A stretch of 64,000 nucleotides of DNA from Escherichia coli (GTDB lineage: Bacteria > Pseudomonadota > Gammaproteobacteria > Enterobacterales > Enterobacteriaceae). Of this stretch, positions 7,338 to 19,968 are shown piece by piece. The translations under genes were made by a program, and so were the position numbers. The notes beneath the pieces were generated by a model. It made no database searches and was not told the DNA's origin. It saw only the letters and a program-made list of their open reading frames with translations. The stretch lies in the NCBI RefSeq assembly GCF_002854065.1, contig NZ_CP024147.1; one strand, written 5' to 3'. Positions within the stretch are counted from its first letter, which is position 1, and every line of letters begins with the position of its first letter.

Positions 7338-7352
7338 GGTAATGACTCCAAC

Positions 7353-7856
7353 TTATTGATAGTGTTTTATGTTCAGATAATGCCCGATGACTTTGTCATG
7401 CAGCTCCACCGATTTTGAGAACGACAGCGACTTCCGTCCCAGCCGTGCCAGGTGCTGCCTCAGATTCAGGTTATGCCGCTCAATTCGCTGCGTATATCGC
7501 TTGCTGATTACGTGCAGCTTTCCCTTCAGGCGGGATTCATACAGCGGCCAGCCATCCGTCATCCATATCACCACGTCAAAGGGTGACAGCAGGCTCATAA
7601 GACGCCCCAGCGTCGCCATAGTGCGTTCACCGAATACGTGCGCAACAACCGTCTTCCGGAGCCTGTCATACGCGTAAAACAGCCAGCGCTGGCGCGATTT
7701 AGCCCCGACGTATCCCCACTGTTCGTCCATTTCCGCGCAGACGATGACGTCACTGCCCGGCTGTATGCGCGAGGTTACCGACTGCGGCCTGAGTTTTTTA
7801 AATGGCGGAAAATCGTGTTGAGGCCAACGCCCATAATGCGGGCGGTTGCCCGGCAT
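7353..7856 (-). CDS. insB: IS1 InsB (C-terminal part of the InsAB' transposase, made by -1 frameshifting)
   Basis: 167-aa product [22 protein letters not shown]..., matching InsB; overlaps insA in the -1 frame. Confidence 0.93.
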
Positions 7857-8050
7857 CCAACGCCATTCATGGCCATATCAATGATTTTCTGGTGCGTACC
7901 GGGTTGAGAAGCGGTGTAAGTGAACTGCAGTTGCCATGTTTTACGGCAGTGAGAGCAGAGATAGCGCTGATGTCCGGCAGTGCTTTTGCCGTTACGCACC
8001 ACCCCGTCAGTAGCTGAACAGGAGGGACAGCTGATAGAAACAGAAGCCAC
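7775..8050 (-). CDS. insA: IS1 InsA (transposition inhibitor / N-terminal part of the InsAB' transposase)
   Basis: 91-aa product [40 protein letters not shown], matching InsA. Confidence 0.93.
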
Positions 8051-8105
8051 TGGAGCACCTCAAAAACACCATCATACACTAAATCAGTAAGTTGGCAGCA
8101 TCACC

Positions 8106-9475
8106 TTGAGCCTGTAAAACGTACCACTCGCGCTTATCGTGAAGAAGCAATTATTAAATCCGGTATGAACCCGTTCCTGCTGGATAGCGAAGATGTGTTT
8201 ATCGATTTACTGACCGACAGCGGCACCGGGGCGGTGACGCAGAGTATGCAGGCCGCGATGATGCGCGGCGACGAAGCTTACAGCGGCAGCCGCAGCTACT
8301 ATGCGTTAGCCGAGTCAGTGAAAAATATCTTTGGTTATCAATACACCATTCCGACTCACCAGGGCCGTGGTGCAGAGCAAATCTATATTCCGGTACTGAT
8401 TAAAAAGCGCGAGCAGGAAAAAGGCCTGGATCGCAGCAAAATGGTGGCGTTCTCCAACTATTTCTTTGATACCACGCAGGGCCATAGCCAGATTAACGGC
8501 TGTACCGTGCGTAACGTCTATATCAAAGAAGCCTTCGATACGGGCGTGCGTTACGACTTTAAAGGCAACTTTGACCTTGAGGGATTAGAACGCGGTATTG
8601 AAGAAGTTGGTCCGAATAACGTGCCGTATATCGTTGCAACCATCACCAGTAACTCCGCAGGCGGTCAGCCGGTTTCACTGGCAAACTTAAAAGCGATGTA
8701 CAGCATCGCGAAGAAATACGATATTCCGGTGGTAATGGACTCTGCACGCTTTGCTGAAAACGCCTATTTCATCAAGCAGCGTGAAGCAGAATACAAAGAC
8801 TGGACCATCGAGCAGATCACCCGCGAAACCTACAAATATGCCGATATGCTGGCGATGTCCGCCAAGAAAGATGCGATGGTGCCGATGGGCGGCTTGCTGT
8901 GCATGAAAGACGACAGTTTCTTTGATGTGTACACCGAGTGCAGAACCCTTTGCGTAGTTCAGGAAGGCTTCCCGACGTATGGCGGCCTGGAAGGCGGCGC
9001 GATGGAGCGTCTGGCGGTAGGTCTGTATGACGGCATGAATCTGGACTGGCTGGCTTATCGTATTGCGCAGGTGCAGTATCTGGTCGATGGTCTGGAAGAG
9101 ATTGGCGTTGTCTGCCAGCAGGCGGGCGGTCACGCGGCATTCGTTGATGCCGGTAAACTGCTGCCGCATATCCCGGCTGATCAATTCCCGGCACAGGCGC
9201 TGGCCTGCGAGCTGTATAAAGTCGCCGGTATCCGTGCGGTAGAAATTGGCTCTTTCCTGTTAGGCCGCGATCCGAAAACCGGTAAACAACTGCCATGCCC
9301 GGCAGAACTACTGCGTTTAACCATTCCGCGCGCAACATATACTCAAACACATATGGACTTCATTATTGAAGCCTTTAAACATGTGAAAGAGAACGCGGCG
9401 AATATTAAAGGGTTAACCTTTACCTACGAACCGAAAGTATTGCGTCACTTCACCGCAAAACTGAAAGAAGTTTAA
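8106..9475 (+). pseudogene. tnaA: Tryptophanase gene tnaA, 5'-truncated by IS1 (promoter, tnaC leader and about the first 17 codons missing)
   Basis: Reading frame immediately right of the IS1 end translates ...[41 protein letters not shown], i.e. tryptophanase starting at an internal codon. Confidence 0.9.
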
Positions 9476-9565
9476 TTGACACTACAGAGTGGCTATAAGG
9501 ATATTAGCCACTCTCTTACCCTACATCCTCAATAACAAAAATAGCCTTCCTCTAAAGGTGGCATC

Positions 9566-16851: not shown

Positions 16852-16907
16852 TATTCCCTATAAATAATTTATGTCGTTAATCGTCCAGTCGCACACCCTC
16901 TGTATGG

Positions 16908-19177
16908 TTAAGCCTGGGTTATATTTTTCACAATATCGGGATACCGTTCGAACCAATCCAGAATATTACGCATCGCGTCACTGATTTTTTTATTAGCTTT
17001 ATATTGATTCTCGCGTCTAAAATTTTGAACAATATTAAGGTTAGAACGTATCTTATTGTCATCGTCAGCAATCTTCTGATTTAATGCCGCTACTTCATCC
17101 TGTACTTCTTGACTATCCCACTTGTCCCTTTTATTATCAAATAAAGTCCTTTTATCATCTACTGATTTATCACGCTTTATGGTTAACTCTTTAATTTCTC
17201 GCAATAAGTCATCGTAATCTTTAATGGAAGCTCTTATTTCCTGATAGTTTTTTAGTAAATCCTCCCAGTTAATTGCAAATGCACCGGAAAAATTTCGAAA
17301 ATCGGAAGCAAACTTATTGAGTTCTGAGTCGTAATATGCTTTGAAATTTTTTATATCTTGCAGTTGGATTTTTAGCGCTTCAATTTGTTTTTTTTCAACA
17401 CCTTCAAAAAGGGGGACAAGGTCACCATAATTCAATTTATAATCAATATCAAATTGGTTATGAGACTCATGTTGTTTTTGTCGAATAAATTTGTCTGAAT
17501 CTTTAGTAGGCATTTTTATATCTGCCGGTGGAATGATTTTATTTATGATAGATTCAATAAACTTAATCCGGTCACTTTCTATCATATTGGTAATAATATT
17601 TTGTGCTTTATATTGCATATCTTTGAAAATAAAAAATTCAGACCTACTATTATTAAAATGATATTTCTCCTCGTACGATTTATTTTCAACATAAAGTGTA
17701 GACAAAAACGACTCTAACTCTGAAAATGCGTTTTTATATTTTTCCTTAATATTTATTTCAGTATTATAAAAATTTAACACATCGCTATTGATAGCACTTA
17801 CCTTTTTTAAGAAATTAGGTATTTGGTCTTTACTTATAGCTCCATCCAGATTCATATAAATGTATTTTATCGGTGTAACACCATCTTCTAAATGAATTGA
17901 ATCTGGATCAATAGAACAGTCTTTGCACCAATCTTCTCTGTAATAATTGTCTAAATTGGCCCTCCGCAAATCACAATAATTAAAGGAGATATTATCAATC
18001 TCTGAATTTTGCTTGCTAAATGAAGTTTTAACAGCCTTCTCGATATTCCCTACGCACTTAGAAAAATTATCATCCAACTTAAGATTTCTCGATCTTCTTT
18101 CAATGTAATCAGAAAAATACTCTTCGGGGTTAAACTTATATTCATCTGAACTCACATTACCAAGACTACAGTTCATTTTAATACTATTCAAATTACAACA
18201 ATCAAACACAGTTCCCTGATCCTGCGCCCTGGCTTCGTTATCACTAGACTTAGTGAATGCGTTTGCCAAAAAATCCATCCCATGAGCATCAAGTTTCGCT
18301 ATCGTACAGTTATAAAAATGACTCAGAAGTATACTCGAACCAGGACAATATCCCCCCTGAATTGTGCAATCCTGAACAAAAGACTGCATAAAGAGATAAG
18401 AACCTAATTTTTCATTAATACTTACAGGTTGTGTAACGTTGTAGATTTTAGACGTCTCACATCTATAATTTTCAATTTTGCATTTAGAAATAAAACAACC
18501 TTTAAACATACCTTTTATTGGTTTATTATTTTCGGACCCCACTGTATTATCAACAGGCTCATAAAGCTGTATATTGTTGAATTTACAATCCTCAAAATAG
18601 CAATTTTCAAAAACAGGACCTTTAAGATCCACACTTTTTATCTCCCCTGAAAAAATTACATTTTTAAAACTACAATATTTTAGTGAATTCAAAACATCCT
18701 TAGACAACGATGATAAATTGATTGTTGTATTAATAATAGGAATTTTATTTTTAATCAGCGTCGCAAGTTTTACAGAATAATCATCAAACGTTAATCTCAT
18801 CAAGGGAGAATTATCAAAATGTAAATCATCGAGATAATTATCAAGCGTTAATCTCTCTGAAGAAACCTGTTTTTTTTCGTTATCATTCGAAGTAGCCCCC
18901 GTGTAGAGATTAAAGGATCTACTCACAATAACTTCATTATTTTCATTTGTGGTAAAGTCTGTCTTAGTACTAAATAGCCATTGTTGTTCTTTTTTTGCCA
19001 GAGATTTAATCTTATCGAACACCTCGGCTTTATTATCAACTTTCGTGACAAATTCGTAAATTAAGCCTTTGATTTCTTTAATATGAGATCCAGGAAAAAG
19101 ATCGCGAACAAACTCCCACAGTGTACGTTTTTTAAATAAATCCCCTTTGCCATCAAGAATATTTTCAATATCCTTAG
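16908..19177 (-). pseudogene. Large AT-rich accessory gene, paralog A: pentapeptide-repeat-like, cysteine-rich protein with a charged C-terminal tail; 5' end removed by IS1
   Basis: 704-aa ORF from a GTG codon, but the frame stays open upstream to the IS1 boundary and that stretch (KDIENILDGKGDLFKKRTLWEFVRDLFPGSHIKEIKGLIYEFVTKVDNKAEV) aligns with residues about 55-105 of the intact paralog B; shared motifs GPVFENC.FE.C.F, GMFKGCF, LFMQSFV, C.IAKL...GMDF. Confidence 0.75.
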
Positions 19178-19192
19178 GGTAATGACTCCAAC

Positions 19193-19696
19193 TTATTGAT
19201 AGTGTTTTATGTTCAGATAATGCCCGATGACTTTGTCATGCAGCTCCACCGATTTTGAGAACGACAGCGACTTCCGTCCCAGCCGTGCCAGGTGCTGCCT
19301 CAGATTCAGGTTATGCCGCTCAATTCGCTGCGTATATCGCTTGCTGATTACGTGCAGCTTTCCCTTCAGGCGGGATTCATACAGCGGCCAGCCATCCGTC
19401 ATCCATATCACCACGTCAAAGGGTGACAGCAGGCTCATAAGACGCCCCAGCGTCGCCATAGTGCGTTCACCGAATACGTGCGCAACAACCGTCTTCCGGA
19501 GCCTGTCATACGCGTAAAACAGCCAGCGCTGGCGCGATTTAGCCCCGACGTATCCCCACTGTTCGTCCATTTCCGCGCAGACGATGACGTCACTGCCCGG
19601 CTGTATGCGCGAGGTTACCGACTGCGGCCTGAGTTTTTTAAATGGCGGAAAATCGTGTTGAGGCCAACGCCCATAATGCGGGCGGTTGCCCGGCAT
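19193..19696 (-). CDS. insB: IS1 InsB
   Basis: Identical to the InsB of the first IS1 copy. Confidence 0.93.
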
Positions 19697-19890
19697 CCAA
19701 CGCCATTCATGGCCATATCAATGATTTTCTGGTGCGTACCGGGTTGAGAAGCGGTGTAAGTGAACTGCAGTTGCCATGTTTTACGGCAGTGAGAGCAGAG
19801 ATAGCGCTGATGTCCGGCAGTGCTTTTGCCGTTACGCACCACCCCGTCAGTAGCTGAACAGGAGGGACAGCTGATAGAAACAGAAGCCAC
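19615..19890 (-). CDS. insA: IS1 InsA
   Basis: Identical to the InsA of the first IS1 copy. Confidence 0.93.
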
Positions 19891-19968
19891 TGGAGCACCT
19901 CAAAAACACCATCATACACTAAATCAGTAAGTTGGCAGCATCACCGTCATCTCAATCGTTTTTCTAAA

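Follow-up and report, generated by a model that had tools for sequence, protein, structure and literature searches.

Two identical copies of the insertion sequence (IS) IS1, copy A and copy B, lie about 11 kb apart in a 64,000-nucleotide stretch of an Escherichia coli chromosome (NZ_CP024147.1; this whole stretch is called the window), on either side of a block that runs from a truncated tnaA gene to a truncated type III effector gene (Table 1). Both copies are probably what a series of IS1-driven rearrangements left behind in a lineage of E. coli that is rich in IS1, rather than fresh insertions or the two ends of a transposed unit.

The ends and flanks of the two elements were mapped exactly. 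As the original prediction had stated, the copies are identical and in the same orientation: 768 of 768 positions agree, with no difference outside the open reading frames (ORFs) either, and the identity ends sharply at both termini. They are direct repeats, with insA and insB' on the minus strand in each, and no further IS1 fragment was found in the window. Imperfect terminal inverted repeats of about 23 bp (GGTGATGCTGCCAACTTACTGAT / GGTAATGACTCCAACTTATTGAT) are present at both ends, and insB' lies in the −1 frame after insA, with an A6C slippery site at element position 307. The InsB' part matched the NCBIfam IS1 transposase profile NF033558 with 143.8 bits (cut-off 100) and the short InsA part scored 90 bits (cut-off 100). 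For the identical IS1 copy in relatives, Pfam DDE_Tnp_IS1 is on record, and the RefSeq label is 'IS1-like element IS1B family transposase' (WP_095033700.1). Because the unchanged 768-bp sequence (100% identical) was also found in the unrelated E. coli A3176 and CUPF06, and in all three local IS1 copies of the genome CUWW06, the identity of copies A and B says little about their age.

IS1 makes 8–9 bp target duplications and reportedly transposes replicatively within the chromosome (PMC12428005). The 9-bp flanks are GGAGCCGTC / TTGAGCCTG for copy A and TATCCTTAG / GTCATCTCA for copy B. No direct repeat of 6–14 bp flanks either copy, and no crossed or reverse-complement pairing between the copies matches, so the earlier claim that the flanking 9 bp agree in no combination stood up to this search, made after exact end mapping. 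The element itself is ordinary, and the duplications would be absent because of later rearrangement. The copy A flanks (7329–7337 and 8106–8114) share GAGCC with an offset of one base, most likely by chance.

The window was compared with the closest complete genome in the collection, E. coli 100416 (NZ_CM128593.1); the collection consisted of E. coli only, and coordinates marked L001 refer to the locus in 100416. Positions 1–7337 of the window correspond to 31471–38807 of the 100416 record, on the plus strand and with 0 mismatches. Positions 8106–19177 and 19946–64000 match the opposite strand of the same record with 99.95–99.97% identity (99.95% over 8106–19177). The two breakpoints at copy A are 46,286 bp apart in 100416, where the gene order is that of the standard E. 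coli map, and the interval between them contains tnaC, the ShET2/EspL2 effector gene, mnmE-yidC-rnpA-rpmH, dnaA-dnaN-recF-gyrB, ilvBN and uhpABCT. Since the usual place of the left flank of copy A is 46.3 kb distant, with the orientation reversed, the simplest reading is that copy A would be one end of an inverted 46.3 kb interval. Right of copy A the window is collinear with 100416 at 99.96% identity. Its last 44 kb, which span pst, glmUS, atp and oriC (placed by synteny at ~43.25–43.63 kb, about 43249–43626, between mnmG and mioC) and reach into an rrn operon, hold no other IS or rearrangement relative to 100416.

The other end of such an inversion was found in a close relative, the complete genome CUWW06 (NZ_CP182139.1), which shows 1 mismatch to the window in 7.1 kb and 1 in 6.8 kb and shares its architecture: porin', IS1, tna side, and further on effector', IS1. 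Near the end of its record CUWW06 carries the reciprocal breakpoint, in the order yicL, nlpA, inverted IS1, ShET2 remnant, IS2, ShET2 remnant, mnmE and on to rpmH, with dnaA at position 1 directly after this stretch. The nlpA/IS1 junction of CUWW06 is the same as that of the un-inverted 100416, in which an IS1 (L048 14021–14788) lies upstream of nlpA at a distance of 46 bp and borders on an iatC gene that is cut at its 3' end, without a duplication. Three IS1-free relatives (L052, L056 and L057) have an extra 8.9 kb at this site, consisting of the end of iatC, a regulator, type III translocator genes and yicS. The reciprocal IS1 copy of CUWW06 has lost a further 1,572 bp on its tna side, and the resulting junction recurs in identical 765–838 bp contigs from at least 21 samples. 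The prediction that copy A is not a simple insertion and arose by an IS1 rearrangement with another copy was supported, the second IS1 probably being the one beside nlpA. Among the complete E. coli genomes of the collection a related architecture was seen only in CUWW06, and the porin/IS1 junction at 7337 in none. As a separate observation, most relatives hold a type III secretion translocator/chaperone cluster, a regulator and yicS in the iatC–nlpA interval (L049–L058); in 100416 and its descendants the translocator cluster has been removed by the IS1 beside nlpA.

The same pairing of porin and tna sequences across IS1 is present in two independent contiguous assemblies, the 4.74 Mb contig UGBN01000001.1 and CUWW06, and the latter has the matching reciprocal junction as well. 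It is therefore very improbable that the arrangement is an assembly artefact in which flanks were mispaired across identical 768-bp repeats, even though repeats that exceed short reads are a classic cause of misjoins and the contigs of relatives assembled from short reads all end at these junctions.

The junctions themselves are shifted between relatives by 26 bp to 2.6 kb (Table 1); in UGBN01000001.1, for example, the junction at tnaA nt 14 reads IS1 followed directly by AACATCTCC. Wherever both ends could be read in one contiguous assembly, IS1 was intact and the missing DNA began at its terminus. Intramolecular target-primed transposition, documented for IS1/Tn9, produces deletions and inversions that start exactly at the element terminus (PMC9330008), and the shifted junctions appear to be the signature of such IS1 adjacent deletions. 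The same pattern was found at the gap beside copy B and in two steps, of 8.9 kb and 19.2 kb, at the nlpA copy.

Copy B replaces 515–518 bp of 100416, between L001 18552/18555 and 19069. The match to the effector gene ends at L001 18551–18554, where a 3-nt GGT is ambiguous with the IS1 end. The gap takes the start of the effector gene, the intergenic region and the start of the pentapeptide-repeat gene, and the flanks have a G+C content of 29–34%. Other E. coli have independent IS1 insertions at five other positions in this effector island; a normal duplication flanks some of them, and others are accompanied by deletions. The best reading of copy B is that IS1 entered the AT-rich effector island in an event of its own, and that DNA next to it, at one end or at both, was probably deleted afterwards. 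The original prediction derived copy B from recombination or rearrangement involving other copies; it was right that this is not a simple insertion, but other IS1 copies are not needed, because insertion plus adjacent deletion is enough.

From the junction coordinates, the inversion relative to the relatives and the reciprocal junction in CUWW06, all of which were read directly, we infer an order of events, and for each step whether transposase or homologous recombination was at work. The IS1 beside nlpA would be the ancestor of copy A. From its right inverted repeat (IRR) end 8.9 kb would have been lost up to iatC, which is the stage seen in 100416, and then a further 19,212 bp (record 38808–58019), which would have carried the IRR end into the porin gene and created the porin/IRR junction at 7337. 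A second, inverted IS1 would then have arisen at the 5' end of tnaA, with inversion of the 46.3 kb between the two copies, either in one step, by replicative transposition within the molecule, or because the first copy recombined with an inverted one that had been inserted independently. The old porin/IRR junction would have stayed with copy A of the window, and the old junction between nlpA and the left inverted repeat (IRL) with the reciprocal copy outside the window. The last step at copy A would be the loss of 33 bp more of tnaA from the IRL end. Copy B would be a separate insertion, in which the adjacent deletion or deletions of 515–518 bp erased the duplication along with the starts of both neighbouring genes.

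The placing of the porin junction before the inversion draws on the sizes of short-read contigs that end in IS1 at 7337, which are either ~97 kb or ~44.1 kb. The first size equals 46,286 + 51,077 bp, the un-inverted distance to rrnC, and in a 96,989-bp contig of this class ShET2 and tnaA are intact, as placed by coordinates. The second equals 38,807 + 5,326 bp, which is how far away the IS2 within the ShET2 gene lies once the segment is inverted. The IS1 would thus have been at the porin gene before the inversion, because the ~97 kb contigs equal the un-inverted distance.

The window reads porin, IRR-IS1-IRL, tnaA', and the reciprocal region of CUWW06 reads nlpA, IRL-IS1-IRR, tna side. This pattern fits replicative intramolecular transposition (Turlan and Chandler 1995, as cited in PMC12428005), because in that process each copy retains one of its former flanks and acquires the other from the target. 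It resembles the events described for IS1/Tn9, IS26 and Tn3 (PMC9330008) in its deletions of variable extent from an intact IS terminus, and in an inversion bounded by inverted IS copies that each keep one old flank. It differs in that the events were reconstructed from natural isolates and that the split target duplication was not recovered.

All of these events might also have come about by RecA-dependent recombination among pre-existing, normally inserted IS1 copies, with no intramolecular transposase event: the inversion would stem from oppositely oriented copies at the porin/nlpA region and tnaA, and each deletion from a direct pair. The products would be sequence-identical to those of transposition, the substrate is ample in a lineage with at least 40 IS1 copies, and both the 5' region of tnaA and the effector island have been struck repeatedly by independent IS1 insertions in other E. 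coli. However, this route demands an extra insertion in the same orientation for every deletion, even at 26 and 33 bp from the resident copy, and no relative showed an intermediate with two close IS1 copies. Furthermore, replicative transposition inside the chromosome has been reported for IS1 (PMC12428005). We regard recombination as the sole route as possible, though somewhat unlikely.

Recurrent insertion near tnaA bears on how the neighbouring junctions are read. The tnaC-tnaA 5' region (equivalent to about window 8060–8500; L001 7167–7560) is a recurrent IS1 target, with six IS1 positions within ~400 bp of the tnaC-tnaA start in six other complete E. coli genomes (L002, L010–L014) and at least seven positions within 400 bp around the tnaA start when that of the window is included. 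Several of these insertions in other E. coli have clean 9–10 bp duplications, and further strains, K-12 AB1157 among them, have IS1 in tnaB. The shared orientation of the tnaC-tnaA insertions may be a bias of how the search joined pieces. The junctions of the window were also sought in other complete E. coli; all IS1 elements near tnaA or in the effector island were at different positions, and are therefore independent events. Some neighbouring junctions among the relatives may likewise be independent insertions, because unrelated strains have been hit by IS1 there repeatedly.

Several points weigh against the history proposed above, in whole or in part. Transposition, and insertion followed by homologous recombination, would give identical products that sequence could not separate. 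Because IS1 strikes the 5' region of tnaA so often, the difference of 33 bp between UGBN01000001.1 and the window could also mean that insertion and inversion happened twice, independently, with no later deletion. That the porin junction came first and the inversion later rests in part on contig-size arithmetic. The reciprocal breakpoint with its inverted IS1 and complementary flanks was seen in CUWW06, and that of the source genome itself would lie outside the window. Two of the relatives with shifted junctions, L037 and L038, are metagenome contigs with clustered mismatches and may be strain mixtures. The 9-bp inverted target duplication predicted at the tnaA-5'/IS1 junction was also looked for and not found: the protein collection lacks fusion proteins of the porin 5' part with IS1 (duplications of 0 and 7–11 bp), a metagenome scan for the IS1 IRR joined to the 5' end of tnaA had no match, and no ShET2(1–473)-IS2 fusion protein is on record. 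The porin fusions would be absent because the reciprocal copy keeps the nlpA flank instead.

Other markers were tried in the search for relatives. The 317-aa truncated porin ORF has been recorded from 114 contigs that bear the label E. coli, and a 208-aa truncated ORF is not on record. The ShET2 and mnmE alleles of 100416 led only to un-inverted relatives, and the nlpA allele is widespread, hence no pointer to inverted genomes. The 436-aa ORF of tnaA' was useless as a lineage marker, as gene callers give the same product from intact tnaA. L035, L037 and L038 were considered as divergent lineages and rejected; with their clustered mismatches they are probably mixed-strain metagenome consensus contigs. 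L035 (ENA ERZ651904 NODE_2274, a 13.7 kb metagenome contig) has the identical truncated effector gene with its IS1 junction at window 19151, core genes that are only ~87–91% identical, and a lipase gene cluster in place of tnaAB beside mnmE. Chimerism or mixing during assembly is the probable cause, though the effector-IS1 segment may instead have been transferred into a different Escherichia background.

The two copies and the segment between them had also been described as a composite-transposon-like structure. Two intact, identical, direct IS1 copies do bracket the segment, as in Tn9, and in this formal sense the block is a composite transposon, but only formally. Its passenger is 11 kb of native chromosome, which together with its right-hand neighbours is collinear with the standard chromosome save for the 515–518 bp gap, which means that the block has stayed in its original place throughout. 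The outer flanks of the unit, GGAGCCGTC and GTCATCTCA, differ, leaving no duplication around it, and no second site was found among the matches listed from 5,426 E. coli genomes. Nor was the block found on any genuine plasmid among 72,556 plasmid records: matches to 100% and 78% of it came from records of ~1–4.9 Mb that are evidently chromosomes filed as plasmids, and one further match was to a 28 kb record made of chromosomal genes. That the 12.6 kb from copy A through tnaA' and effector' to copy B was inserted as a unit was rejected on these grounds, and we give almost no credence to a Tn9-like element that was inserted in this way or is actively mobile. Loss of the 11.8 kb unit, or its release as a circle, by recombination between the IS1 copies is possible in principle; no such deletion or circle was seen, and short-read data could not have shown such a loss. 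The 28 kb record (L044, NZ_CP134388.1, 'plasmid pMTY11352_4', circular, 28,451 bp) comes from an unrelated strain and carries chromosomal genes only (yieE to yieH, cbrBC, bgl, pst and glmU), and has neither a replication nor a mobility type assigned; it probably arose by misassembly or is a circle excised from the chromosome.

The whole of the inversion falls within one replichore, and it starts ~35 kb from oriC. In CUWW06 (record 1–6025, L043) dnaA-dnaN-recF-gyrB are on the strand toward oriC and are thus head-on to replication, and rpmH-rnpA-yidC-mnmE become co-directional with replication through the inversion. The dnaA operon is predicted to be head-on to replication in the strain of the window too.

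At the tna side of copy A, the tnaC leader and the tna promoter are missing along with the start of tnaA. With the start and leader lost, the strain is predicted to have no tryptophanase and hence to be indole-negative. IS-mediated destruction of the tna operon in indole-negative Shigella is, going by its title, reportedly the subject of Rezwan, Lan and Reeves 2004 (J Bacteriol 186:7460). The likeness to that case is an IS element that removes the tnaA start and leader. The difference is that the relatives here are E. coli and that IS1 in tnaC-tnaA-tnaB is common in ordinary E. coli, and because many such strains carry it, disruption of tna is not specific to Shigella.

The density of IS1 had been called typical of Shigella-like lineages, a label that the evidence here does not support: there are only two IS1 copies and no other IS in 64 kb, no invasion-plasmid or ipaH-type lineage marker was found within the window, and the closest relatives, like the genomes with the truncated ORFs, are all deposited as E. 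coli. Yet the lineage is IS1-rich, because 100416 and CUWW06 each gave at least 40 IS1 matches, against a median of 11 places per genome in a separate search.

The mechanisms involved are textbook IS1 biology, already known, and no new kind of element or mechanism is needed. The comparison contributes the history of a single IS1 copy in nature, traced fairly completely, and a lineage in which the dnaA operon region beside oriC is inverted. The history explains why two intact IS1 copies lack duplications, and leaves the tna operon predicted dead in this strain. IS copies without duplications generally mark the breakpoints of inversions or adjacent deletions, and near-identical relatives can order the events. 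Such descriptions are of value for lineage typing, as structural-variant markers and for interpreting indole-negative E. coli. One further suggestion, which we think unlikely to be right, is that the natural isolates preserve a stepwise record of the single nlpA copy (deletions of 8.9 kb and 19.2 kb, an inversion of 46 kb and then nibbles from 26–33 bp up to kilobases). If IS1 is unusually active intramolecularly here, the lineage could serve as a model from nature of how reductive evolution in the manner of Shigella begins within E. coli.

Table 1. Features of the window and positions of the IS1 junctions in the window and its relatives.
Feature	Position	Strand	Remarks
IS1 copy A	7338–8105	−	768 bp; IRR end 7338, IRL end 8105
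Copy A insA	7775–8050	−	ORF open
Copy A insB'	7353–7856	−	ORF open; A6C frameshift motif ends at 7799
IS1 copy B	19178–19945	−	768 bp; same orientation and sequence as copy A
Copy A junction, tna side	tnaA nt 14		4.74 Mb contig UGBN01000001.1; 33 bp more kept
Copy A junction, tna side	tnaA nt 47 (8106)		Window and ~20 assemblies; their 11.2 kb contig equals window 8031–19250
Copy A junction, tna side	10734		L037, L038, CUWW06
Copy A junction, porin side	7337		Window, UGBN01000001.1, short-read contigs
Copy A junction, porin side	7120/7121		CUWW06
Copy B junction, effector side	19177		Window
Copy B junction, effector side	19151		L035, L037, L038
Copy B junction, effector side	17504		CUWW06
Copy B junction, right side	19946		Window
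Copy B junction, right side	21817		CUWW06
Chromosomal segment, right-hand part (hypothetical gene, uhpABCT, DUF1198 gene, porin 3' part)	1–7337		Inverted and ~46.3 kb displaced relative to the usual E. coli order
LamB-family carbohydrate porin, 3' part	6264–7337	−	Cut at 7337; 5' 306 nt gone
tnaA without first 46 nt	8106–9475	+	Window 8106 = L001 7480; tnaA start L001 7434
tnaB	9566–10813	+	Length as annotated in 100416
mdtL	10945–12120	+	Length as annotated in 100416
yidZ	12095–13054	+	Length as annotated in 100416
yieE	13199–13960	+	ORF 253 aa; 249 aa annotated
yieF/chrR	13982–14548	+	Length as annotated in 100416
adeP	14602–15939	−	Length as annotated in 100416
yieH	16106–16771	+	Length as annotated in 100416
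EspY-like 'type III effector' gene without 5' 136–139 nt	16908–19177	−	Full gene L001 16282–18690
Pentapeptide-repeat/hypothetical gene without first 79 nt	19946–20595	+	Window 19946 = L001 19070; gene L001 18991–19719

The bracketed segment had been described as an 11 kb block of core genes; its gene content is as stated, but the EspY-like effector gene is accessory. The porin gene that is cut at copy A is intact in 100416 (record 37734–39113). The window holds a second EspY-like effector gene, at 21522–23912, a diverged paralogue that is 63–70% identical over stretches to the one at 16908–19177, and the AT-rich pentapeptide-repeat gene sits between the two. An 88-bp segment downstream of each paralogue (16769–16856 and 21383–21469) is 82% identical.

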